The notes below the pieces were generated by a model. The model worked only from the letters and a program-made list of their open reading frames with translations. It was not told the origin of the DNA and ran no database searches. A stretch of DNA of 32,000 bases from Candidatus Saccharimonadota bacterium (GTDB taxonomy: Archaea > Micrarchaeota > Micrarchaeia > Micrarchaeales > Micrarchaeaceae). Positions within the stretch are counted from its first letter, which is position 1; every line of letters starts with the position of its first letter. Shown piece after piece: positions 1 to 18,945 of this stretch. Position numbers and translations under genes: made by a program. Location of the stretch: assembly GCF_002214165.1 (NCBI RefSeq), contig NZ_CP019964.1, positions 300,001-332,000 on the forward strand, given 5' to 3'.

Positions 1-77
1 TTACAGCAAGCGGCAGCCAGCCAAAAAGCAAAACATTAAATATTGTAAAAGCAATATAATAATGAAAAGGTGCTAAA

Positions 78-3000
78 TTGGGTAACAAAAGGTCTATAAA
101 GACAAAAAGTTCCAAAACAAAGCATTCTCATAAAAAGAATGCCCAATCGGCTTTGGAATATTTAGTAACTTACGGCTGGGCTATATTGATAATTGCAGTA
201 GTAATCTCACTTCTATACTTTTTCGTTGCAGTCCCATCTAACGTAGTGCCTAACAGCTGCTCATTTGTTACAGGAGCAAACTGCGAGGACATGGAGCTCG
301 GGTCAAATTCAATATCCCACACGTCAACAATATCATTGCTTATAACGAACAGCAAAGATTATGCGATAAAAGATCCTTCTATAACTGTTGAATATAATAA
401 GGTAAATGTTACCCATTCATGCTACCCTAGTTATGTGCTTCCTGGAGGATCCATAATATGTGTCGCAAATATGTCAACGTACTTGCCAACAAATACATAT
501 ACATATGGTAATCTTTATTTAAACTCTGAAGACTGCGGTTCATCCAATTCTTCCTCGTGCGCAAATGCGCCGAAGCAGATTTATGCAGGGAAGTTCAATA
601 CCCATGTCGCATTGGTGGTAAAGCCTTCATTGACAATTTCACTTAATGCATCAAGTGGTCACAACGGAAGATGGCCTGCTGATAATTATCCTGACGAACT
701 GACCGCAAATGTCATATTCCTCGGATATCCTCTTGCAGGATCAACTGTGAATTTCACAGAGGTTCCAGATGAGGAAACATTGTTCCCTACTTATGCATCT
801 ACCTCGTCGCAGGGAATCGCACACTCATTTGTATATGGAACAACTATTGGCAACATAAAAGTGAATGCGACTTTTGGAAATTACACAAGCCATTACGTAT
901 ACATAAACTTTTCACCTGTAACCCAGTACCACTTGATATTCAATGTCCCTTATGGTAAGGTTACCATAACAACTCCAATCAACAGCACCACATTCACAAA
1001 GAATGCAACTGGGACCACAATATGCAATTCCGAACTTAACTACTCAACGCCATCACAGGTTACACTGGTATCAAACGAGGCATACGAGAACTTCACATAT
1101 GCGGAATCAAACGGCGTAAAGTACTACAATTCGACAGGATCAATACCAATATACTGCAATTCAACGACAGTTTCATTCAATTACACAACTTACTACAAGC
1201 TAAATGAAAATGTCAATCCATCATATTCTTCAGGTGTTGTATCATCGTCCCCATTATCCTCGAACGGGTATTACAAGAAGGATTCATCATTGCAGCTTTC
1301 CGCGAAATCCTCCAATCCAAAAGAATGGGTTTTCGCAAACTGGACATGTGCTGCATCCACATCAATAGGAAGCACATGTTATTCTGGAAACAGCCAATCC
1401 CCAACAATTATAATGTCTAATCCAGTAAATGAGACAGCAAATTTTGACCCTATGCTTTCATTGAGAGTAATCCCAGGAGGCGATGGGACAATAACCGCCT
1501 CATCACCTTCAGGAGCTTCAACAAGTTCATCAACATTCACCAGCTATCCAGAACCCTATGGTTCAAAGATAACATTGGGAGAATCTCCAGCAAACTCAAC
1601 TTTCAGGTTTTATAAATATGTAGGTTTAGGTACAGGAAACTACACAGGAAATAGCACATCGCCCACGATAACGTTTGACAATCCAATAAATGAAACAGCT
1701 GAATACGATGTATATTTAAATGAACTTGCATCGCCTTCAAGTGCAGATGCATCTCTTTCACCTGGCAGCGGCTGGTACTTCCCGAATTCAACAATTACTT
1801 TATCTGAAGTTAACAACACCGGCTACAGGTTTGCAGGATGGACAGGATATGAGAACAATGCATCCTCATCATTTACAATGACAGTTCCAAATACAGACTT
1901 CACGGAGCAGGCCAACTACGATGTATACCTTACAGAGCTCTCATCACCTTCAGCAGCTGCAAAGACACTTTTACCTGGAACTAACTGGTACATTCCGGGA
2001 TCTACAATTAACTTATCAGAGACCAACAACACAGGCTATAAGTTCATGAACTGGACGGGCCAGTTCAGCTCAACCCGTAATCCAATGTCAATAACTGTGC
2101 CAAGCACCCCATTCACGGAAACTGCAGAATACGCAGTTGCCCTAAAACTATCCGTATATGAACACGGGGATGGAAAGGCAACAGTGTCTCCAGGAGGATC
2201 AACTAATTCATCTTCTATTTTCTGGGAAACACCCGGGGCTTCCCTGTATTTCACAGAGACCAATACAACAGGATACAAATTTGCGAAATGGGTAGGATAT
2301 GATAGCGGCAATTCTTCAAACTTTACAATGACCGCACCAAATTCACAATTTAACGAAACTGCAGAATACGATGTATACCTTACAGAGCTTTCTTATCCAT
2401 CAAATGCAGCCTCATCATTATTACCTGGCAGCGGCTGGTACCTACCAAACTCATCAATCACGTTGTCCGAGAAGAACAACACAGGCTACAAGTTTGTCAA
2501 CTGGACAGGATATGAGAAGAGTACTTCTTCATCCTTTACAATGACAGTTCCGAATACTGATTTCACGGAGCAGGCGAACTACGATGTATACCTATCTGAA
2601 CCATCATACCCTTCAGGAGGTGCAAAGACACTTTCATCTGGCAGCGGCTGGTACTTCCCTGGAACTTCAATTACATTGTCAGAGACGAACAACACAGGCT
2701 ATAGATTTATAGACTGGACAGGATATGAAGGTAGTAATTCTTCATCCTTTGGCATGACAGTTCCTACAGAACCATTTACCGAACAGGCGAACTACGATGT
2801 ATACCTAACTGAGCTTTCTTATCCATCAAATGCGGCTTATTCATTATCACCTGGCAGCGGCTGGTACCTACCAAACTCATCAATAACATTGTCCGAGAAA
2901 AACAACACGGGCTACAGATTTGTCAACTGGGAAGGTTACGAGAATAGCACTTCTTCATCCTTTACAATGACAGTTCCGACAGTACCGTTCACGGAGCAGG

Positions 3001-4811
3001 CCAACTACGATGTATACCTAACTGAGCTCTCTTATCCATCAAGTGGGGCTTCTTCCTTAAAACCGGGAGATGGCTGGTACTTCCCTGGAACTTCAATTAC
3101 ATTGTCAGAGACGAACAATACGGGTTATAAGTTTAAGGATTGGACAGGCAATGAAGGAAGCGCTTCTTCATCCTTTACAATGACAGTTCCGACAGAACCA
3201 TTTACCGAACAGGCGAACTACGATGTATACCTTACAGAGCTCTCCTATCCATCAAGTGCACCGTCATCAATTTCACCAGGAACAGGATGGTACTTCCCAG
3301 GATCATCAATAACTGTATCAACATCTGCAAATACCGGTTACCAATTTGAAAATTGGGAAGGTTACGAGAATAGTACTTCTTCATCCTTTACAATGACAGT
3401 TCCGACAGAACCATTTACAGAGCAGGCGAACTTCAAGGTTGGTCTTTATATATCAATAGACCCAAGCAACGGTGGATCTTCCAATCCAACAGCAGGTAAA
3501 TGGGCCTATTACTATCCAAATACAACCACAATAATAAAACTTTCTGCAAATGTAACATCAGATGCAGAATGGTCCTTTACAGGATTTAGTTGTAGTTATA
3601 ACGGAAATGATAGATGCCCAAGCAATGTAAACCCATCCGTCGCATTCATAGGCGATTCCCCATTGTATGTTACTGCATACTTTGAATCCGTAGACCTTTA
3701 TTATATAGCAGGGTTTGATACATCTGCTGGCTATCACACTAACCATGTTTACTATGCACCTATAAATTACAGCAATGGACAGATGGGTGAATGGTATGAA
3801 ACTGAAAGCATATTCGGTCCTAATGGACCTAACAACAAAGGTGTCAATAGCGAGTCGTCTGTATCAAATCAAGGATGTGCTGTAGAAAGTCCAAATAATA
3901 CCTACTCATTCCCTAGTGTGTGGTGTGCAGGTGGAAACAATGCGACAGTTGGAGAGTATTACCAAGTGGAATCCGCATCATTAACGCCTTCAGGAATACA
4001 AGATAATACATGGTATGTGCAGTCACCTCCAGGAAATGATACGCTCAATCATGCGACTACCGAGGCATCCGCAGTAATATCTGGAGACTACATGTATTAC
4101 ATAGGAGGAGAAAAATTAGATGGATGCAGTTTCTTAGGAGTTGCACAAGACTGTGTTTATAATCATGTAGATGAAGCTGAACTGTTCCCCGGAGAGTCAA
4201 GCAGCTGGTCTACAGTTGGCAATTATCCAATAAAGGATTATATCATATATGAAGCAGCTGTATCCTATGATGGATACATATACATAGTAGGGGGGGCAAC
4301 ATCTGGTGAAAGTAGCGAAACTAATGCTGTTTATTCAGCAAAGGTAAACTCTGATGGTACAATAGGTAGCTTAACTGCACAAAACGACTATCCATACTCA
4401 GTGGCTCAGTTGAGCTGTACTGCAAGCGCTGGTTATATATACTGCGTAGGAGGTTACGTAGAAAATGGTTGCACGGTTGATGGCATATCTGCATCATGTA
4501 CCTACAACCAGGTATGGTCTGCACCTATAAGTAATGGGTATGTAGGAACATGGACAAGGCAGGCAAGCTATCCAAGAGGAGCATATGGAGAGAGCTGTGC
4601 TTCATACTACGATGGTATTAACAGTAATAGTGTCATATACTGCGTAGGGGGCGAAAATTCATCTATACCTGGATATGAAGGGGTCCATTATGCCTATGCG
4701 GATGATGGCACAATAAGTGGCTGGTACGATGGAACAACCTATCCATACAATGTAACTCGTGGGGTTGCGGTGCTAGCTGTTACGGGAGGGCCTAATGTTC
4801 TAGGAAGCTAA
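78..4811 (+). CDS. Giant secreted surface protein / putative adhesin. It has an archaeal class III (type IV prepilin-like) signal peptide, a Cys-rich head, an Ig-like module, about 11 InlB-B-repeat-like units and a C-terminal six-blade Kelch-like beta-propeller.
   Basis: Longest ORF in the window. The TTG start at 78 is preceded by AGGTG (68-72), and the next in-frame Met lies after the signal peptide. The N-terminus KKNAQSALEYLVTYGWAILIIAVVISLLYFF is a basic stretch, then Q-S-x-x-E-Y-L, then about 20 hydrophobic residues (prepilin pattern). DELTANVIFLGYPLAGSTVNFT...GNIKVNATFG reads like a bacterial Ig-like module. Eight conserved units (seven of 71 aa, one of 79 aa) follow YDVYLTELSYPS..GSGWY.PGSSITLSE.NNTGY.F.NWTGYE..SSSFTMTVPT.PFTEQAN, plus about 3 degenerate units upstream and downstream. 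The last ~370 aa contain six blades of the form (I/Y)Y(I/C)(V/A)GG ... W ... YP. The protein is very rich in N-x-S/T sequons. Confidence 0.85.
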   Translation: MGNKRSIKTKSSKTKHSHKKNAQSALEYLVTYGWAILIIAVVISLLYFFVAVPSNVVPNSCSFVTGANCEDMELGSNSISHTSTISLLITNSKDYAIKDPSITVEYNKVNVTHSCYPSYVLPGGSIICVANMSTYLPTNTYTYGNLYLNSEDCGSSNSSSCANAPKQIYAGKFNTHVALVVKPSLTISLNASSGHNGRWPADNYPDELTANVIFLGYPLAGSTVNFTEVPDEETLFPTYASTSSQGIAHSFVYGTTIGNIKVNATFGNYTSHYVYINFSPVTQYHLIFNVPYGKVTITTPINSTTFTKNATGTTICNSELNYSTPSQVTLVSNEAYENFTYAESNGVKYYNSTGSIPIYCNSTTVSFNYTTYYKLNENVNPSYSSGVVSSSPLSSNGYYKKDSSLQLSAKSSNPKEWVFANWTCAASTSIGSTCYSGNSQSPTIIMSNPVNETANFDPMLSLRVIPGGDGTITASSPSGASTSSSTFTSYPEPYGSKITLGESPANSTFRFYKYVGLGTGNYTGNSTSPTITFDNPINETAEYDVYLNELASPSSADASLSPGSGWYFPNSTITLSEVNNTGYRFAGWTGYENNASSSFTMTVPNTDFTEQANYDVYLTELSSPSAAAKTLLPGTNWYIPGSTINLSETNNTGYKFMNWTGQFSSTRNPMSITVPSTPFTETAEYAVALKLSVYEHGDGKATVSPGGSTNSSSIFWETPGASLYFTETNTTGYKFAKWVGYDSGNSSNFTMTAPNSQFNETAEYDVYLTELSYPSNAASSLLPGSGWYLPNSSITLSEKNNTGYKFVNWTGYEKSTSSSFTMTVPNTDFTEQANYDVYLSEPSYPSGGAKTLSSGSGWYFPGTSITLSETNNTGYRFIDWTGYEGSNSSSFGMTVPTEPFTEQANYDVYLTELSYPSNAAYSLSPGSGWYLPNSSITLSEKNNTGYRFVNWEGYENSTSSSFTMTVPTVPFTEQANYDVYLTELSYPSSGASSLKPGDGWYFPGTSITLSETNNTGYKFKDWTGNEGSASSSFTMTVPTEPFTEQANYDVYLTELSYPSSAPSSISPGTGWYFPGSSITVSTSANTGYQFENWEGYENSTSSSFTMTVPTEPFTEQANFKVGLYISIDPSNGGSSNPTAGKWAYYYPNTTTIIKLSANVTSDAEWSFTGFSCSYNGNDRCPSNVNPSVAFIGDSPLYVTAYFESVDLYYIAGFDTSAGYHTNHVYYAPINYSNGQMGEWYETESIFGPNGPNNKGVNSESSVSNQGCAVESPNNTYSFPSVWCAGGNNATVGEYYQVESASLTPSGIQDNTWYVQSPPGNDTLNHATTEASAVISGDYMYYIGGEKLDGCSFLGVAQDCVYNHVDEAELFPGESSSWSTVGNYPIKDYIIYEAAVSYDGYIYIVGGATSGESSETNAVYSAKVNSDGTIGSLTAQNDYPYSVAQLSCTASAGYIYCVGGYVENGCTVDGISASCTYNQVWSAPISNGYVGTWTRQASYPRGAYGESCASYYDGINSNSVIYCVGGENSSIPGYEGVHYAYADDGTISGWYDGTTYPYNVTRGVAVLAVTGGPNVLGS
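1704..3431 (+). repeat. In-frame tandem array of 8 coding repeat units: seven of 213 bp (71 codons) and one of 237 bp, all inside the adhesin gene
   Basis: Each unit starts at the TAC of the YDVY/YAVA motif, at 1704, 1917, 2130, 2367, 2580, 2793, 3006 and 3219. The array ends at 3431. A 47-nt stretch (2646-2692) is identical to 3072-3118, exactly 426 nt (2 units) away. Confidence 0.9.
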
Positions 4812-4836: not shown

Positions 4837-5760
4837 ATGCCTTCAGTAACAAGCGACAAATACATTCAGTTTGATGGGATTAAATTCTATCTGCCCCAGG
4901 TTTCAACTAAGTCATCACCCAAGATATCAGGATATGCTTTATCCCAAATGATCTACGATTTTGACAGGAAGTATGAAACTTCAGGTTACCTTCTTGGGAA
5001 GTACGATGCAAGCGCTGGAGCTCCACAATTTTACCGATACCTCCCTATGAAAGGGCTCAAAAGGCTGAGAGACAGTGTCGAAGTAAAAAATGGCAATAAA
5101 GAATTGAGGCAGTTAAAAAGATTAAAGAAGAAAGGCTATACATCCATAATAAGAGTGCATGTCCATCCCGATCAGGATTATACGAAGTTTGCTGATAATG
5201 AACCTGGATATACTGATTCAAGTGCATTTGTAGGATTTGACAGTTACGCCAAAGCCATTGGATTCCAAGAAGTGTACAGCGGAATACAATTTGGAGGAAG
5301 CAGGCTAAAGTCATCAAAGGGACTTAACCTGTACCATTTGACAGGTATAGGATTGGAGAAAACTTCATATGAAGTTGTCAATTTTGATCAAAGCAAAATA
5401 TACAAAGACAAAAAACTTAGGAAGTTTGCACGCAGCACTCAAGGGGTAAAGCATGCATTTAGCGAGTTCAGATATGTGACTACAACAGATGTTAACAAGT
5501 ACCATTTTGAACCAGGCTACTATAAAAATGTCCTTTCATTGAAAGTCCTAAAGAAAGAAGTCAATGAAATGCTATTAAATAAGGGAATAAAAAACATAAA
5601 ACTGAAAGGTAAAAGGTCTGATCTTTACCTTAAGGAAGTAGTGAAGCCATACATGAAATTAAGGAGGGGCTATAATCCCGATTTACTATATATAATAGGC
5701 GAGCAGTTAAAGAGCTCTATGGCCAATTACAAATCAGGTAACCTATCAATAAATATATAA
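4837..5760 (+). CDS. Hypothetical protein with an N-terminal JAB/MPN-like (JAMM metalloprotease-like) motif set and a Lys/Arg-rich C-terminal half
   Basis: The ATG lies 25 nt after the adhesin stop and is preceded by AGAGGT. YETSGYLLGK resembles the E-x-x-G-x-L-x-G element. IIRVHVHPDQDYTKFADNEPGYTDS resembles H-x-H...P-S-x-x-D, with Ser replaced by Gly and about 6 extra residues. Residues ~180-307 are strongly basic. The family assignment is tentative. Confidence 0.4.
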   Translation: MPSVTSDKYIQFDGIKFYLPQVSTKSSPKISGYALSQMIYDFDRKYETSGYLLGKYDASAGAPQFYRYLPMKGLKRLRDSVEVKNGNKELRQLKRLKKKGYTSIIRVHVHPDQDYTKFADNEPGYTDSSAFVGFDSYAKAIGFQEVYSGIQFGGSRLKSSKGLNLYHLTGIGLEKTSYEVVNFDQSKIYKDKKLRKFARSTQGVKHAFSEFRYVTTTDVNKYHFEPGYYKNVLSLKVLKKEVNEMLLNKGIKNIKLKGKRSDLYLKEVVKPYMKLRRGYNPDLLYIIGEQLKSSMANYKSGNLSINI

Positions 5761-10226: not shown

Positions 10227-11726
10227 GTGTTGATTTTGAACCTTAACCTAAAAGATAACAAACACCTTTTCCTTGTATTATTAATTGTCCTGTATGTATT
10301 TTCATTGGTGGCGCTGTTCAGCATATACAATTTGCGGGGAGTGTCATGGGATTTTGTAGCACATTACTTGAATGCGAAATCTATGATAAGCAGCAATTTC
10401 CTAAACTACATCAAACCTCTAGGGCAAAGCACAATAGTAATAAACAGCCACATATACTTCGAGACCGACCGTGCACCTCTTGACTCTGTTATAATGGGCT
10501 TGATAATGCTTTCAGGCGCAAAGGAAATAATACCAATTTACATAACTATTCTTGCAACACTATTGTTCATCTCTATCTATTTATTTTCAAAATACTTCAA
10601 GGTTAATCCTCTTATATCCGCTTCGGTTATAATAACACCTTATATATTGAAGTTCTCTTTTCTACTGAACAGCTCAGGCGCACTTTCAATAGCAATGCTC
10701 CTAATCTCATTGGCATTAATAAAAAAAGGAAGCATCTACGCAGGTGCATTTATGGCATTGGCAGGTCTTGCAAAGTACATTTCAATAATCTTCTTCCCCT
10801 TATTGCTTTTGTTGGGCAGCAACAGGAAAAGAGCCGAATCCATTGCCTTGCTGTTTATCGTGTCCCTTCCATGGCTTCTATTCAACCTAATTGCATTAGG
10901 AAACCCGTTTTACAGCTATCTGGCGTCATTCAGCGTTTATTCAAATAGCACTCCGGGAGGCCTGCCGATTTTAGGCGCTATTGGAGAGGTCCTAGGAAAT
11001 CTTGTATTTCCAATAATAGTGCTATTGATTCTGGCGGGTTATCTATTTTACCGTAGATCAAGGATGTCCCGCAAAGACAACGATAAGAATATTATGCATT
11101 ATCTTCGTTCGAATATTGCAGACCTAAAGTCAATTATAATGAATAAGGGAGGCACGGCTCAGATATTGGCATCACTCTTTTTATTGTCTGTTATCCAGTA
11201 CCTGATTGTAGTGCCAAGGATGATGGAGTTTGATCAAATCAGGCTGAGCTATTTTGTTTATATCGCAATCGCATTGATGATTATTACGGCTTTAAATGGA
11301 TACCTAAGGAAGTTGCCTAAAAATAAAAATATAAGATTAATACCAACACTGGTAATAATGATAATATTCTCGGTAAGCCTGCTTAATGTGGCTTACCTAT
11401 CTTATTCTGTGAGGCAACCAAGTTCCAACTGGATGATCAGCGCCACCAATAATAGCACGTTGAAAGATACTGTTGCAGAACTACAGTTATACAATCTATC
11501 CAACTGCAATGTGGTTTCAAACTCATGGATTTACTTAAGGTATTATGGTATTAAGGCGTATTCCCCATTCTATTACAACAATACAATCCTAAAGTATCCT
11601 GTAGTATTGATAGAATACCAGGGAGTTAATGAGACTTACGTAAAGGACAAAGGAGCATCCCTTTTGTTCAAGGAGGATATGGTAGATATATATCTTCCAA
11701 GCGGCTTCGAGTGCGTAACAACCTAA
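10227..11726 (+). CDS. Polytopic integral membrane protein, possibly a GT-C-fold glycosyltransferase-like protein
   Basis: GTG start. More than ten hydrophobic segments by eye. An acidic motif (FETDRAP) sits in the first predicted loop, and the C-terminal ~100 aa appear soluble. The function is a guess from architecture only. Confidence 0.35.
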   Translation: MLILNLNLKDNKHLFLVLLIVLYVFSLVALFSIYNLRGVSWDFVAHYLNAKSMISSNFLNYIKPLGQSTIVINSHIYFETDRAPLDSVIMGLIMLSGAKEIIPIYITILATLLFISIYLFSKYFKVNPLISASVIITPYILKFSFLLNSSGALSIAMLLISLALIKKGSIYAGAFMALAGLAKYISIIFFPLLLLLGSNRKRAESIALLFIVSLPWLLFNLIALGNPFYSYLASFSVYSNSTPGGLPILGAIGEVLGNLVFPIIVLLILAGYLFYRRSRMSRKDNDKNIMHYLRSNIADLKSIIMNKGGTAQILASLFLLSVIQYLIVVPRMMEFDQIRLSYFVYIAIALMIITALNGYLRKLPKNKNIRLIPTLVIMIIFSVSLLNVAYLSYSVRQPSSNWMISATNNSTLKDTVAELQLYNLSNCNVVSNSWIYLRYYGIKAYSPFYYNNTILKYPVVLIEYQGVNETYVKDKGASLLFKEDMVDIYLPSGFECVTT

Positions 11727-11893: not shown

Positions 11894-12619
11894 GTGATGA
11901 ATTTTACCAAGCAAGTCAAAAGTGTAATAGAGGTCAAAAATCTAGTCAAGATGTACAGCTACGGAAATTCCGAGTTCGCAGCTTTGGATTCTATAAGCTT
12001 TGATGTAAAACTAGGTGAATTCGTATCAATAATAGGGCCTTCTGGATCTGGAAAGACTACTCTTCTAAATATGCTAAGTGCCATGGACAGGCCAACAAGC
12101 GGGGATGTAATAATAAACGGCAACAATATAAACGAGTTGTCAAATTCAGAATTAGCAACTTTGAGGAACCGCGAGATAGGTTTTATATTCCAGTCATTCA
12201 ATCTGATAAATACGATGACTGCACTGGAGAATGTAGAGCTTCCTTTAATGCTGCAAGATGTTGATAGAAAAGAGAGAGATGTAAGGGCAATGGAGCTCCT
12301 GAAGATGCTTGGAATCGACAACCGCGCCCATAACCTCCCATTGATGATGTCTGGAGGGCAGCAGCAAAGGGTTGCAATAGCAAGGGCAATAATTACCAAG
12401 CCAAAGATAATATTGGGAGATGAGCCAACAGGCAACCTCAATACGGAGGACACGGAAGTGGTTATGGGGATTCTTGAAGACATACATAAGAATTTCGGAA
12501 ATACCCTGGTCATAGTTACGCACAATCCTGAAGTTGCCAATAGGGCGGAAAGGATAATACGGATAAAGGATGGAAAGATAGAAGGCATAGACAGCAAACT
12601 TAAGCTTAAAGAGATATAA
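11894..12619 (+). CDS. ABC transporter ATP-binding protein, MacB/LolD/FtsE-like
   Basis: Walker A GPSGSGKTT, Q-loop, signature MSGGQQQRVAIARA, Walker B ILGDEPTGNL, and H-loop VTHN. The start is either GTG 11894 or the adjacent ATG 11897. Confidence 0.95.
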   Translation: MMNFTKQVKSVIEVKNLVKMYSYGNSEFAALDSISFDVKLGEFVSIIGPSGSGKTTLLNMLSAMDRPTSGDVIINGNNINELSNSELATLRNREIGFIFQSFNLINTMTALENVELPLMLQDVDRKERDVRAMELLKMLGIDNRAHNLPLMMSGGQQQRVAIARAIITKPKIILGDEPTGNLNTEDTEVVMGILEDIHKNFGNTLVIVTHNPEVANRAERIIRIKDGKIEGIDSKLKLKEI

Positions 12620-12630
12620 GAGGGATAAAA

Positions 12631-14379
12631 ATGTCAAAATTTATAGTATACTTGTCGGTTATGATTTTTGCCACTGCGTTATTGGGAGTTGCATCCGCAC
12701 AGGGTTCTGATTCATTTACGCTGATAAACGCGTATTTTGGCTCCAATGGGACAGTAATAAATCCGGTTCCAGGGCAGAACAGTGTCCCTTTGACTCTGGT
12801 AATTGAGAGTAACCAAGACAAGCTGCTTTCCAATACCTCACTTGAACTATACAATTTCAATTCCGGTTTTAAGCCCATAAATGGCCAAGGCAGCATAACA
12901 GAGGAGTTGCCGGATGTAAAGCCAGACCAGACATTTTCAATTACCTATTACATAGATATACCATCTTATGCAAGGGAAGGCACATACTACCTCGATCTTG
13001 AGATAGAGCCTAACAACACGGTTTCTGAGGAATACACAATGCTGGTGCCTTTCATATACGGCGGAGTTCCAAGCATAAAGTACACATCAGATGCCCCACA
13101 TTTGATTCCAGGAGAAATAAACAATTTAACAATAAATATAAATGACACAGGCTCAGGCAGCGTTACTTCACTACAGCCATATTTTTCATCAGAGCAGCCA
13201 ATTAATGGACAAAATTCAAGCATCCCTTCAATCAAAGTTTTAAGTTCTCCTGCCAAGATTGGTTATCTTGGGGTAAACCAGACAGTTCAGGAAAATCTCA
13301 GCGTCTATGTCCCAGAGAGTGCAGCCGGATCGATTGCAAATATCGAAATAACCTCAAAATACCTAAACTATTACGGGCAGCAGGGAATGCAGAATTATAC
13401 ACTGAGCATACCGGTCGAAGCCCCGTCAAACTTGGTAATAAATGAAACCGACAGTTCGGCATACTTAGGAAAATCAACAGCCCTTGCATTTAAAATAGAA
13501 AACATAGGAGGTTCAGCAGTTAAATCGGTCGTTGCCACTTTGTCTACAGAAGTATCAGGAATATCAATAACGGGCAACAGCACTTCATATTTCACAAGCA
13601 TTCCTGCAGGGTCTAATGTGACCTACTCACCAACAATAGCGGTTGGTCCATCTGTAAGCGAAGGAGGTTATGCAGGAACTTTGGACATATCATATGAGAA
13701 TCAGCTGGGGCAGCAGGAGCAGATAAGCTATCCGATTGGGTTCACCGCAGTAGGATTGACAAGCTTGGTTACTGAAACACCTTCTGTATCAGCCATATCG
13801 GAAGTTGGCAATGTGCCAATAGCAACGGTATCAGGAAGCTTGGTTGATGAAGGATCGGGAAATGCTTACTATGTCACGGTATATGCATACTTAAAGAGCA
13901 ATGGCAAGGTTATAGGAAGCAATTCCTCATATGTAGGAGAGATACAGCTGAATTCCCCAATGCCATTCAGTGTTACTGTAATACCTAACACGACAAATTC
14001 CAATAGCTTTGCAGCAGGGTTTGCAGGAAAAGGAGGATTCGCAAATAAAACCGGGGCTTTTGCAAACAGAACAACAGCGAACAAGTCAGCAGCAAACAGC
14101 ACTGACGCAGCAGAGCCCAATTACCAAAATCTTACAATTGAGGTTTATGAAAAGTACCAGAATTCATTCAGCCAGAATATGGTATCCACCCCGGAGACAT
14201 TTGCAGTCCCTAAGCCTGTCGCATACAACGCATCCGCATTTGCAAAGTACAAAGTAAAGACCAATAATTACACAGGATACTATGTGATAGCTGCAGTAAT
14301 AATAGTAATAATATTGGCATTTGCCTACAGAAGCAAGAAATCAAAATCCAAGAAGCACAGGACAGGATCAGTAATATGA
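12631..14379 (+). CDS. Secreted, C-terminally membrane-anchored surface protein with COG1361/CARDB-like beta-rich modules
   Basis: Sec-type signal peptide (MSKFIVYLSVMIFATALLGVASAQG). Repeated modules follow the pattern KIENIGGSAVKSVVATLS...IPAGSNVTYSPTIAV...GGYAGTLDISYENQLGQQ. An Ala/Asn/Gly-rich linker precedes a C-terminal TM helix (YYVIAAVIIVIILAFAY) and a basic tail (RSKKSKSKKHR). GAGGG lies upstream of the ATG. The gene sits between the ABC ATPase and permease genes. Confidence 0.7.
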   Translation: MSKFIVYLSVMIFATALLGVASAQGSDSFTLINAYFGSNGTVINPVPGQNSVPLTLVIESNQDKLLSNTSLELYNFNSGFKPINGQGSITEELPDVKPDQTFSITYYIDIPSYAREGTYYLDLEIEPNNTVSEEYTMLVPFIYGGVPSIKYTSDAPHLIPGEINNLTININDTGSGSVTSLQPYFSSEQPINGQNSSIPSIKVLSSPAKIGYLGVNQTVQENLSVYVPESAAGSIANIEITSKYLNYYGQQGMQNYTLSIPVEAPSNLVINETDSSAYLGKSTALAFKIENIGGSAVKSVVATLSTEVSGISITGNSTSYFTSIPAGSNVTYSPTIAVGPSVSEGGYAGTLDISYENQLGQQEQISYPIGFTAVGLTSLVTETPSVSAISEVGNVPIATVSGSLVDEGSGNAYYVTVYAYLKSNGKVIGSNSSYVGEIQLNSPMPFSVTVIPNTTNSNSFAAGFAGKGGFANKTGAFANRTTANKSAANSTDAAEPNYQNLTIEVYEKYQNSFSQNMVSTPETFAVPKPVAYNASAFAKYKVKTNNYTGYYVIAAVIIVIILAFAYRSKKSKSKKHRTGSVI

Positions 14380-14392
14380 AATAGGTGGTTAG

Positions 14393-15760
14393 ATGAAGCA
14401 GCAGGATATACTGGGTATAGTAATAAACTATATGAGGCAGAAAAAGGTCAGGACTACCCTTACCGTATTCGGCATAATGCTGGGTCCCGCTGCAATAGTA
14501 GCCCTTTTAGGCCTTGTCGGAGGATTTGGGGCTTATATAACATCCGAATTGGGTAGCACAGGGGTTACGACAATCTATGCCACGCCCCTGCCCAATTTTA
14601 CCTTAAACAATAATGTGGTACACACGATAAGCGGAATGGAGGGCGTCAAGGTTGCGCTTCCATACTATACGGCCAGCGGAACATTGACGCAAGGTACTCA
14701 AAATACTTCCGTAAGCATATATGCGGTCAACATATCCGCTGTTCCGGAAATAATACCCAACCTAAAGCTTCAGAACGGGTCCATACCTTCCAATGGATTT
14801 TATACGGCAGCTGTTGTTGGCTATGACATTGCCCACCCAAACATAACAGGAGCAAGGAATATTTCATTAAACCAGGTTATAACAGTAAACGGCAATTCCG
14901 GATTCGCAGGGTTTGGAGGAGCGTCTGCAAGTCCAAAGAGCTATTCATTCCTTGTGCATGGTATATATGCTCATTTTGGGCAGGCATTGTTCTTAAGCCC
15001 TGACAGCTCAATATTCATACCTTTGTCCGGAGGAATTCTCCTTACGAATGACACCGGAAAATACAGCGGCATACTAATATCTGCAACTAATGCATCTTCC
15101 GTAAGCTTGGTAAGCTCTGAATTGACTGCGGAATACGGCAATAATATCAAAGTAATAACCGTCTCAAGCATACTTTCTGAAATAGAATCGATAGAAAGCA
15201 GCATTTCGCTTATACTTCTCGCTGTTGCATCAATATCACTGCTTGTCGCGTTCGTAAGCATAGTCACGACGATGTATTCATCTGTTACCGAGAGGACTAC
15301 AGAAATAGGGATAATGAAGGCGCTTGGATTTACAAGCAACAAGATAATGCTTGTATTCCTTTACGAGTCCTTGATAATTGGCCTTATAGGAGGAGTTTTT
15401 GGAGTTGCATTAGGCACTGCAGGAAGCTATGGAGCAAGCGCTGTGATGAGCCATCTATCCGTGGGCAGCTCCTCTGCAGGTCCACCAGCAGCTTCATCAT
15501 CATTTGGGGGAAGTTCATCATTCGGTTCAAGCAAAGGTGCAGGATTTTCGGGCCGCAGTGGATTTTCCGGAGGGAGTGGATTTTCAGGTTCTGGATCAAG
15601 CACAATATCAAGCTCAAGCATCAATATAACGCCTGTTATATCGTTGCAGCTTATACTTGAGGTAATACTTCTTACTATAACAATAGGAGTGCTTGCCGGG
15701 ATATTCCCCGCATGGAAGGCGTCAAGGCTCGTCCCCGCAGAAGCACTTAGGTCAAACTGA
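14393..15760 (+). CDS. ABC transporter permease, MacB/FtsX family, with a Gly/Ser/Phe-rich insertion
   Basis: An N-terminal TM helix, then a ~230-aa extracytoplasmic domain, then the FtsX-type TM bundle (TEIGIMKALGFTSNKIMLVFLYESLIIGLIGG...). The C-terminal PAWKASRLVPAEALR motif is typical of the family. GGTGG lies 4 nt upstream of the ATG. Confidence 0.9.
   Translation: MKQQDILGIVINYMRQKKVRTTLTVFGIMLGPAAIVALLGLVGGFGAYITSELGSTGVTTIYATPLPNFTLNNNVVHTISGMEGVKVALPYYTASGTLTQGTQNTSVSIYAVNISAVPEIIPNLKLQNGSIPSNGFYTAAVVGYDIAHPNITGARNISLNQVITVNGNSGFAGFGGASASPKSYSFLVHGIYAHFGQALFLSPDSSIFIPLSGGILLTNDTGKYSGILISATNASSVSLVSSELTAEYGNNIKVITVSSILSEIESIESSISLILLAVASISLLVAFVSIVTTMYSSVTERTTEIGIMKALGFTSNKIMLVFLYESLIIGLIGGVFGVALGTAGSYGASAVMSHLSVGSSSAGPPAASSSFGGSSSFGSSKGAGFSGRSGFSGGSGFSGSGSSTISSSSINITPVISLQLILEVILLTITIGVLAGIFPAWKASRLVPAEALRSN
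15542..15595 (+). repeat. Three tandem 18-nt repeats (GGATTTTCNGGNNNNNGN) encoding GFSGRS-GFSGGS-GFSGSG within the permease gene
   Basis: Direct reading: ggattttcgggccgcagt / ggattttccggagggagt / ggattttcaggttctgga. The repeats sit inside a ~55-aa Ser/Gly-rich segment (about 15461-15620). Confidence 0.85.
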
Positions 15761-17697: not shown

Positions 17698-18945
17698 ATG
17701 AATGGTTATACAAACAACATGGATTCCACAAGAGCCTATAAATTCAGGATCTATCCAGATACTAAAAGGCAGAATGAGATAGATGAAAGGCTAATCCTTG
17801 CACAGCAGTTCTACAACAAGATTCTGGAGAAGTCCATTGAATCCTATAAGAATGGAAAGGCAAAAGCCTCAATGGCACAGTTCAACAGGTTCGTCAAAGA
17901 AATAATCCAAGATGACAAGAAATACCTGAAACTATACTCGCAGACGAGATGCGAGATTGAATATAGGCTTCTCAAGGCATACCAGAACTTCTTCAGGAGA
18001 ATCAAGGAAGAAAACAGAAAGGCAGGATTCCCGAGATTCAAGTCAAGGAACAGGTACAAGTCAATAACATATCCTCAGTACAATGGCTCTTTCTCAATAA
18101 AGAGGGGCAGGCTGAGAGTCTCAAGGATAGGAACAATGAGGATAGAATTGCATAGGAAGATTGAAGGCACAATCAAGACGCTTGCAATAAAGAGGGAGGG
18201 AAGAAATTATTATGCTGTTCTTACCACAATAAACGAAATCAAAACCCCACAAGTGGAGGACACAAATCCAATCGGAATAGACATGGGATTGAATTCATTC
18301 GTTGCAATGTCAGATGGAACAAAAATAGAAAAGCCGAAATTCATGCAACAGGAAAGAAAGAGGATTGCGCATTGGCAGAGAATAGTCGCACGGAGAAACA
18401 AAGGTTCAAAGAGAAGGGAGAAGGCAAAAACACATCTCCAAAAAACATACGAATACTCCACAAACCAGTCGGACGACTACTTGCACAAACTTTCAGACAG
18501 GCTTGTCGATTCAGGATATACTTCATTCGCAGTAGAGGATTTGCACATTCAAAACATGGTAAAGAATCATAGATTGGCAGGTTCGATACAAAACGCTTCA
18601 TGGAACAGGTTCATCCAAATGCTTTCATACAAGGCTGAAAGTGCTGGTATGAAAGTAATAAAAGTAGATTCAAGGGACACGACGCAGGAATGCAGTAACT
18701 GCCACCATATAAAGGAAGGCAGTGAAAGGTTGACTTTAGGAGACAGGTCATACCGCTGCAACGTCTGCGGACTGGAAATTGACAGAGATATAAATGCATC
18801 AATAAACATATTGAACAGAGCAACTACCCTCGGACAGAGGGAAAGTCACGCTCAGGGAGAGAGTGTAAGGCCTCAAAGGGAGGCAGTTCTCGCTGAACTG
18901 AGAACCGATAAAACACATCCTTTGCGGGATGCAGTGATTGCATGA
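17698..18945 (+). CDS. tnpB: TnpB (IS605 OrfB-type RNA-guided endonuclease), apparently intact
   Basis: AAGGTG lies 7 nt upstream of the ATG. RuvC-I is GIDMGLNSF, RuvC-II is FAVEDLHIQNM, the zinc finger is CSNCHH...CNVCG, and RuvC-III is DRDINASINI. The N-terminal YKFRIYPD block is typical of OrfB/TnpB. Confidence 0.92.
   Translation: MNGYTNNMDSTRAYKFRIYPDTKRQNEIDERLILAQQFYNKILEKSIESYKNGKAKASMAQFNRFVKEIIQDDKKYLKLYSQTRCEIEYRLLKAYQNFFRRIKEENRKAGFPRFKSRNRYKSITYPQYNGSFSIKRGRLRVSRIGTMRIELHRKIEGTIKTLAIKREGRNYYAVLTTINEIKTPQVEDTNPIGIDMGLNSFVAMSDGTKIEKPKFMQQERKRIAHWQRIVARRNKGSKRREKAKTHLQKTYEYSTNQSDDYLHKLSDRLVDSGYTSFAVEDLHIQNMVKNHRLAGSIQNASWNRFIQMLSYKAESAGMKVIKVDSRDTTQECSNCHHIKEGSERLTLGDRSYRCNVCGLEIDRDINASINILNRATTLGQRESHAQGESVRPQREAVLAELRTDKTHPLRDAVIA

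Follow-up and report, generated by a model that had tools for sequence, protein, structure and literature searches.

Among the described surface structures of prokaryotes, the bacterial modular pilins, i.e., type IV pilins with further functional modules attached, come closest to the protein treated here. More than 1,200 of these proteins have been catalogued, they reach lengths of up to 860 amino acids and have been modelled at the pilus tip, and in Streptococcus sanguinis PilB carries a vWA module and PilC a lectin module (PMC8179133). In archaea, large adhesin-like or DUF2341 'PilY-like' proteins have been predicted in pilus loci (PMC4858521), and large adhesin-like proteins have likewise been predicted in archaeal pilus systems (bioRxiv 10.64898/2026.04.22.720090). 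For Candidatus Mancarchaeum acidiphilum Mia14, an ARMAN-type DPANN archaeon kept in culture as an ectosymbiont of Cuniculiplasma divulgatum, giant surface proteins, Kelch-bearing ones already remarked upon among them, and type IV pili have been proposed as the cell-cell interface, the two being treated separately (PMC5498576). Here, we analysed a stretch of 32,000 nucleotides of the Mia14 genome (contig NZ_CP019964.1, positions 300,001 to 332,000; this whole stretch is referred to as the window) with regard to a protein of 1,577 amino acids encoded at its 5' end. Taken as a whole, this protein is best explained as a giant modular type IV pilin-like adhesin that is taken up into a pilus as a minor subunit, a reading to which we assign a probability of roughly 0.55. 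An earlier note on this stretch, written without knowledge of its origin, had speculated that the DNA might stem from an episymbiotic or a biofilm archaeon, the former of which proved right.

With the bacterial modular pilins the Mia14 protein has in common an N-terminal class III signal, an alpha-1 helix, a small globular domain and adhesion modules grafted onto the C-terminal side. It combines a pilin module (residues 1-185) with non-pilus modules (Big_1, eleven InlB-B repeats and Kelch), which is one of the criteria by which modular pilins are recognised, its bulk likewise implies a place at the filament tip, and in bacteria, too, the multi-repeat extremes occur in ultra-small episymbiotic organisms (Candidatus Falkowbacteria, 860 amino acids; PMC8179133). 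On the other hand, the protein belongs to an archaeal sequence family with Gln at position +1 and without the bacterial IPR012902 motif, its stalk has about 14 domains and carries a Kelch propeller at the tip, and its incorporation into a pilus is what we infer here. A second parallel is found in Methanococcus maripaludis, where the Epd pilins, substrates of the peptidase EppA, have processing sites of the type [KR][GA]|Q, Gln at +1 and Glu at +5 (PMC4371748); moreover, as in the Epd system, the operons of small pilins related to the Mia14 protein contain one ATPase gene and two platform genes in the system 1 layout. In contrast, Epd pilins are small, position -2 is occupied by Asn in the Mia14 protein, which is not scored by PF04021, and Mia14 was reported to contain a single FlaK-like peptidase and no separate EppA (PMC5498576).

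The stalk is built from the same families as those of the intimin/invasin and InlB B-repeat adhesins, namely Big_1 (at family level) and PF18998, but these adhesins are bacterial and anchored by a beta-barrel, LPXTG or GW modules, none of them by a pilin module. A beta-propeller also forms the end of PilY1. The PilY1/PilC tip adhesins further resemble the Mia14 protein in that they are large, pilus-associated and proposed to reside at the tip for attachment. PilY1, however, is no pilin itself but is attached through minor pilins, whereas here the propeller is covalently joined to a pilin module; PilY1, PilC and DUF2341 domains were not detected in the Mia14 protein with Pfam.

The open reading frame (ORF) was found exactly where the earlier note had placed it (78-4811) and starts with TTG. 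Due to an in-frame stop at 63-65 there is no alternative start upstream of the hydrophobic helix. A start downstream of that helix, which the note had considered, is contradicted by the fact that the helix is translated and conserved in all relatives, and the ATG of the orthologous gene lies 32 codons 5' of Gln +1. The product is 100% identical to ASI13657.1 / WP_088819821.1 / UniRef A0A218NMG9, annotated as 'cell surface protein' of Mia14. The 3' third of the window is made up by the A-type ATP synthase operon that carries the numbers MIA14_0355-0364 in the genome paper (PMC5498576), and judging from its distance to this operon the ORF is most probably MIA14_0331, one of the four giant 'surface layer' proteins mentioned by the genome authors (PMC5498576). 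The features of the gene and its product are as follows:

69..72, + strand: Shine-Dalgarno-like GGTG, 5 nucleotides 5' of the TTG start, read from the sequence
78..4811, + strand: whole ORF, 1,577 amino acids plus stop, TTG start, read from the sequence
78..143, + strand: basic leader peptide, residues 1-22, with eight Lys/Arg and two His, ending in K-K-N-A
144..230, + strand: mature N-terminus as predicted, with the hydrophobic alpha-1 helix, residues 23-51 (QSALEYLVTYGWAILIIAVVISLLYFFVA), from the AlphaFold2 model and alignment
231..632, + strand: residues 52-185, globular head of the pilin module, modelled as a beta domain of eight strands and containing six cysteines
633..917, + strand: immunoglobulin-like (Ig-like) Big_1 domain, residues ~186-280, from sub-threshold Pfam matches and the family profile
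918..1202, + strand: conserved beta-rich domain, residues 281-375, from family alignments A3 and A4
1203..1706, + strand: two divergent InlB-B-like units, residues 376-543, found with a hidden Markov model (HMM) of the protein's own repeats (independent E-values, iE, 0.0075 and 0.0005) and part of the PF18998 match
1707..3434, + strand: eight tight InlB-B repeats, residues 544-1119, from the own-repeat HMM and PF18998
3435..3686, + strand: divergent InlB-B-like unit number eleven, which contains a Cys pair, residues 1120-~1203, from the own-repeat HMM (iE 0.15)
3687..4808, + strand: six-bladed Kelch propeller, residues 1204-1577, from homologues, AlphaFold2 and Foldseek

The N-terminus reads MGNKRSIKTKSSKTKHSHKKNA|QSALEYLVTYGWAILIIAVVISLLYFF and contains a predicted prepilin-type site, KKNA|QSALEY, with Ala22 at -1, Gln23 at +1 and Glu27 at +5. 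Gln23 and Glu27 are unchanged across 18 relatives, pilin-sized proteins among them, and Y32, A35, L37, C61 and C69 are likewise invariant in the 18 sequences (alignment A1). The leaders that precede Gln in the relatives comprise about 10-40 residues and differ in length as well as in sequence, and a near-fixed block, QSAxEYLxTYGWAILII, extends from Gln +1 on. The AlphaFold2 (AF2) model of the N-terminal module, which has a mean predicted local distance difference test score (pLDDT) of 83, contains a helix at residues 21-51; the hydrophobic stretch measures about 30 residues and is followed by Pro rather than by a signal peptidase I site. The FlaFind-type rule was applied by hand as stated in PMC4371748. 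The hydrophobic domain is located after and not before the processing site, as the rule asks, and Ala22 conforms to position -1, where A, G or S is present at 97 of 104 related metagenome sites. Of the prepilin-type signal claimed in the earlier note, Ala at -1, Gln at +1, Glu at +5 and a helix of some 30 residues could be substantiated, while the strict rule fails at one of its six positions, the Asn at -2.

The evidence that connects this N-terminus with pilins of pilus operons stems from a scan of metagenomes with the motif EY[LI]xTYGWA, which yielded more than 600 stretches, 539 of which were confirmed and 80 loci kept. A T2SSE ATPase is encoded in eight of these 80 loci alongside the N-terminus, as compared with about two loci that would be expected by chance according to our own rough estimate, which is this low because most loci are short. 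The gene order is the same in all eight cases, with an ATPase, two polytopic membrane proteins and one to three pilins of 145-198 amino acids that share [KR][GA]|Q[SA]A[LM]E[YF]L.TYGWA; for L024 and L085, T2SSE and two T2SSF proteins were confirmed with Pfam. This order matches the 'system 1' layout of pilus genes, which methanogens and some DPANN archaea are reported to have (bioRxiv 10.64898/2026.04.22.720090). Between 13 and 17 of the first 20 residues of the mature Mia14 protein are identical to those of the pilus-operon pilins. The pilin of 147 amino acids encoded directly after T2SSE-T2SSF-T2SSF in L085 agrees in each of the first 15 mature residues (17 of 20 overall), and the operon pilin of L024 (190 amino acids) is 36% identical to residues 23-156, the Cys pattern of the head included (E 2e-30).

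These findings bear on the alternative that the N-terminus is an ordinary Sec signal peptide or anchor, which the earlier note had named, and that its likeness to class III signals is fortuitous. The length of the leader (22 residues), the failure of the strict -2 rule and the lack of matches to PF04021 and in NCBIfam would be in line with such a signal. We nevertheless regard it as very improbable, because homology to pilins from ATPase-platform operons extends into the head, the conserved block begins exactly at Gln +1 behind variable leaders, and the hydrophobic stretch of about 30 residues ends with Pro and not with a signal peptidase I site.

The head behind the helix, an eight-strand beta domain in the AF2 model (pLDDT ~90), contains the cysteines C61, C69, C115, C128, C153 and C161, all six of which are invariant in 42 large relatives. 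The 'Cys-rich head' of the earlier note holds only six cysteines and represents the globular domain of the pilin module. When the helix is removed, the remaining head can still be aligned with small pilins (hhalign probability 69%, E 4e-5). Residues 1-185 thus appear, from sequence and model, to form a complete pilin module that consists of leader, A|Q site, helix and a probably disulfide-braced beta head.

Pilin-sized proteins of 160-200 amino acids and LamG-fused proteins of Micrarchaeota begin with the same N-terminus. An exhaustive search with the helix-plus-head profile recovered 9,238 cluster representatives at E <= 1e-3, of which 196 remain at E <= 1e-30; in the best 150 matches the module is situated at or near the N-terminus, with protein lengths ranging from 118 to 2,365 amino acids. 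Among 144 close representatives, 25 have at most 220 amino acids, 62 fall between 500 and 999 and 15 comprise at least 1,000. Big_1 is present in 36 and InlB-B in 13 of the 42 large representatives, whose further modules, such as Kelch, other propellers, glycine-rich domains and Hint, were each seen once or twice. P0016, for example, is a pilin module fused straight to a Kelch domain (486 amino acids). Because of the number of representatives, their length spread and the modules attached to them, the pilin-headed design is widespread in this lineage and not exceptional. Calling it an 'unusual design', as the earlier note did, was an overstatement for a module with which thousands of proteins begin, large ones in many cases. 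A Hint or pretoxin-HINT C-terminus was observed on the same pilin-type N-terminus in some proteins, among them the large P0006 (alignment A4) and P0146 (401 amino acids), so that the pilin chassis might also exist in variants that cleave themselves or deliver toxins.

With regard to the stalk, an Ig-like module had been proposed earlier and finds support at the level of the family. In the Mia14 protein alone, Big_1 (PF02369) at residues 216-278 reaches 24-27 bits and stays below the cut-off of 34.9, but Big_1 matches were obtained for seven of eight and 36 of 42 relatives (E down to 1e-13), and the family profile matches intimin (6tpl_A, E 1.7e-5). For the adjoining residues 281-375 no match was found in sequence searches of Pfam and the PDB. 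The roughly eleven InlB-B-like repeats postulated in the note are borne out by PF18998 (Flg_new_2, InlB B-repeat), which matches in eight stretches with E 3.4e-36 and 123.5 bits (cut-off 23.6), and by the HMM built from the protein's own repeats, which delimits eleven units with the divergent ones at 376-456, 471-543 and 1120-~1203. Seven of the eight tight units comprise 71 amino acids and one (686-764) comprises 79, with iE values from 1e-33 to 1e-44; the eleventh unit is the weakest assignment, and an equivalent unit is conserved in the orthologue. On the DNA level the array has a period of 213 bp. A super-repeat of two units (426 bp) is conserved better, with 82% matches at 2268-3432 vs. 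73% for single 213-bp units, which indicates that unit pairs were duplicated together. A Cys-rich insertion in a late repeat of the paralogue and the orthologue is not present in the Mia14 protein.

The protein contains 50 N-x-S/T sequons, compared with 31.7 +/- 4.8 in 2,000 shuffled sequences, two of which reach 50, and their density of 3.2 per 100 residues contrasts with 0.3-1.0 in the cytoplasmic proteins of the window. In agreement with the earlier note, which had seen N-N-T in most repeat units, this sequon is present in six of the eight tight repeats and N-T-T in a seventh. Heavy N-glycosylation of the stalk is therefore predicted to be likely. Altogether, sequence and models point to a rod composed of some 14 small beta domains (Big_1, the beta domain and eleven InlB-B units), probably a few tens of nanometres in length if general domain sizes apply, with the propeller at its far end.

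The six-blade Kelch-like propeller that had been suggested for the C-terminus is well corroborated. Among the homologues of the last 374 residues, 461 contain Kelch domains of Pfam, and six repeats can be made out in the consensus of the family. The AF2 model of this part (pLDDT 80, predicted template modelling score, pTM, 0.85) has Keap1, KLHL12, K13 and the designed protein SAKe6 as its top Foldseek matches (E ~1e-15, template modelling (TM) score for the target 0.83-0.88). On the query propeller itself, Pfam scores stay below the cut-offs (PF24681, 37.7 vs. 50 bits; Kelch_1, 16.1 vs. 20.1). The few named homologues among its best matches stem from Thaumarchaeota/Nitrososphaerales, which suggests acquisition of the propeller by domain shuffling.

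A syntenic orthologue of 1,662 amino acids is encoded in the metagenome-assembled genome (MAG) HSP2.bin36 (locus L003), where diphthamide synthase and pyrophosphatase genes are located upstream. Its propeller is 72% identical to that of Mia14; a swap of the distal module, considered for the orthologue on account of a missing Pfam Kelch match, was rejected on the basis of this alignment. In Mia14 itself, a paralogue of 1,365 amino acids (P0002) is encoded outside the window. It is 81% identical over the shared part and possesses the same pilin module and stalk, and ends in Cys-rich InlB-like units without a propeller. Two heads on one chassis, as in the query and P0002, make two ligands possible.

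The assignment of MIA14_0331 to the giant 'surface layer' proteins (PMC5498576), together with its size, its few charged residues and its many sequons, could be taken to indicate a surface layer (S-layer) lattice protein. S-layer domains were not found with Pfam or NCBIfam (S_layer_N / TIGR01564, TIGR01567), however, and the S-layer protein described from a related micrarchaeon, which carries TIGR01564/TIGR01567-type domains, belongs to another family (bioRxiv 10.1101/2021.04.28.441871). Furthermore, a tandem rod of small domains plus a propeller is the architecture of an adhesin and not of a lattice. We have rejected the S-layer reading on the basis of the missing domains and consider it highly unlikely.

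That the protein is a surface adhesin led by a pilin module appears quite probable to us. Whether it is displayed on a pilus or left anchored in the membrane is, on the other hand, an evenly balanced matter, the earlier note too having named both options, and a number of observations weigh against the pilus. The first group concerns the processing site. Asn21 at -2, with Lys at -3 and -4, does not satisfy the demand for a charged residue; K or R occupies this position at 101 of the 104 related metagenome-locus sites and in 93 of 116 close family representatives, N in just four of the latter, and both the Mia14 paralogue and the orthologue have Glu. As a charged residue at -2 has been described as critical for archaeal prepilin peptidases (PMC4371748), cleavage of the 1,577-residue protein is uncertain. 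The N-terminus yields no match to PF04021 Class_IIIsignal in Pfam even at E 10, and its module is not recognised in an NCBIfam search. The motif of PF04021 is QxSxExxxL, with which Q+1 and E+5 agree and S+3 and L+9 do not; a related small pilin scores 13.3 bits against this family (cut-off 23.7), and NCBIfam gave no usable match for related small pilins either. Structural comparison is a second point, since for the N-terminal model Foldseek returned only generic helix-plus-Ig-like matches, the archaeal pilin structure 8fk7 following at rank 49 with E 7e-3. Third, a protein of 1,577 amino acids is nearly twice as large as the largest bacterial modular pilin cited above.

Genomic context adds a fourth point. 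A pilus ATPase, a platform protein and a prepilin peptidase were not found among the ORFs of the window, just as the earlier note had stated, and no pilus gene was seen near the query gene, its orthologue or about 15 large relatives examined. Likewise, none of five small or LamG-fused relatives (P0143, P0145, P0149, P0160 and P0139) has an adjacent pilus operon, while in L010 a lone T2SSE gene lies about 4 kb from a small/LamG-fused relative. The exception is the gene for P0004 (1,157 amino acids; MAG GCA_027337045.1), which converges on a gene for a 288-residue protein (L007, 13796-14662) that is likely an A24 prepilin peptidase (Peptidase_A24, 24.8 bits vs. a Pfam cut-off of 26.5, and a weak Arc_PepC match); this is the only adjacency to a peptidase gene that was seen. 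The genome of Mia14 as a whole was reported to encode a single A24 prepilin peptidase, MIA14_0570 (A24A), along with two type IV pilus loci (PMC5498576), so that the genome-wide lack of such a peptidase, which the note had envisaged as an argument against a prepilin, does not apply.

Stand-alone pilin genes of this family are placed among housekeeping genes in L001 and L008, which derive from different genomes: the genes for the small pilin-like P0143 and the LamG-fused P0149 share a stretch with a proteasome, SBDS, exosome and L37ae cluster, P0149 following it immediately and P0143 lying some 6 kb further downstream of it.

Several of these points would equally fit a helix-anchored surface fibre, in which the pilin-like N-terminus, whether cleaved or not, serves as an anchor only, the stalk crosses the S-layer and the propeller is presented from the cell body. 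Class III signals are present on archaeal proteins that are not filament subunits, which also counts against the pilus; the sugar-binding proteins of the Sulfolobus bindosome are the precedent for such a fibre (PMC4371748), although they are solute-binding proteins and lack a pilin head, a stalk and a propeller. An anchored fibre would also explain why the query gene and its large relatives are never found beside genes for pilus machinery, and Asn at -2 may weaken or block processing. In addition, the conserved chassis of pilin module, Big_1, beta domain and InlB-B unit and the similar housekeeping locus of distant relatives (a pyrophosphatase gene lies upstream in both L003 and L006) would suit a standing component of the envelope. 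Yet a mere anchor needs hydrophobicity only, whereas near-identity to the operon pilins extends over Gln +1, Glu +5 and the greater part of the first 20 mature residues, and the six-cysteine pilin head has been kept as well. The ordinary anchored surface protein encoded at 12631-14379 makes use of a Sec-type signal and a C-terminal anchor instead. We consider the anchored fibre the less likely course, though one to be reckoned with.

For the protein as a giant pilin-like adhesin that becomes a minor pilus subunit, we infer cleavage, pilus assembly, localisation and binding of a host ligand in the following manner. The precursor would insert into the membrane via Sec, and its 22-residue leader would be removed by the single A24 prepilin peptidase MIA14_0570. 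The alpha-1 helix, near-identical to that of ordinary pilins, could then be taken up by one of the two type IV pilus machineries, and the protein would be incorporated as a minor subunit whose bulk confines it to the filament tip. There, the glycosylated stalk would hold the propeller tens of nanometres away from the cell, where it may bind to Cuniculiplasma, a host that lacks a wall, by way of a protein or glycan. By its predicted architecture, the protein is a good candidate for the means by which Mia14 holds on to its host.

The way in which DPANN archaea recognise their hosts and stay attached to them still calls for an explanation, and Mia14 together with Cuniculiplasma divulgatum is among the few cultivated pairs. 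In the Mia14 protein, the giant surface protein and the pili are now joined, as it begins with a pilin module like that of the small pilins encoded in pilus operons of other archaea. The idea of the modular pilin, surveyed so far only in bacteria, is extended to a large archaeal family. New here are the recognition of a pilin module within the giant protein and the size of the family that shares this module. We tentatively put forward, as a rather doubtful generalisation, that helix plus Cys head define a very large undescribed family of archaeal modular pilins which, in DPANN symbionts such as Mancarchaeum, would place host-recognition heads at the tips of system-1 pili. If this were true, the chassis would consist of pilin, Big_1, beta domain and InlB-B, with Kelch and other propellers, LamG, Hint and glycine-rich modules as swappable parts, the 'pili-like' connections between ARMAN and Thermoplasmatales cells would be tipped by such proteins, and paralogue turnover (P0001 with a propeller end, P0002 without) would set the host range. 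The query provides a concrete molecule for testing host attachment.

Regarding the neighbourhood in the window, a very basic protein of 307 amino acids without a family match is encoded directly downstream of the adhesin gene (4837-5760), and it is kept at the same place in the orthologous locus of MAG HSP2.bin36 (L003, 8392-9315). A small downstream ORF as a conserved partner of the adhesins in general was considered and rejected, because the ORFs that lie downstream in distant relatives resemble neither each other nor the 307-residue protein. A polytopic membrane protein of 499 amino acids (10227-11726), for which merely a weak EpsG match was obtained, could be a GT-C-type glycosyltransferase for surface glycosylation. 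It is followed by a cassette of three genes (11894-15760) for an ABC ATPase (11894-12619), a surface protein of 582 amino acids (12631-14379) and, at 14393-15760, a permease of the MacB/FtsX type. In the surface protein, a classical Sec signal (…GVASA|QGS) is accompanied by 21 sequons, a C-terminal membrane anchor and weak CARDB/NPCBM_assoc matches. Finally, a gene for a TnpB / Cas12f1-like protein (IS605 OrfB) without an adjacent TnpA gene is located at 17698-18945 beside the ScpA and ScpB genes. Similar TnpB genes lie near pilin-like genes in L001, L006 and L008, a proximity that may merely reflect their abundance in these genomes.

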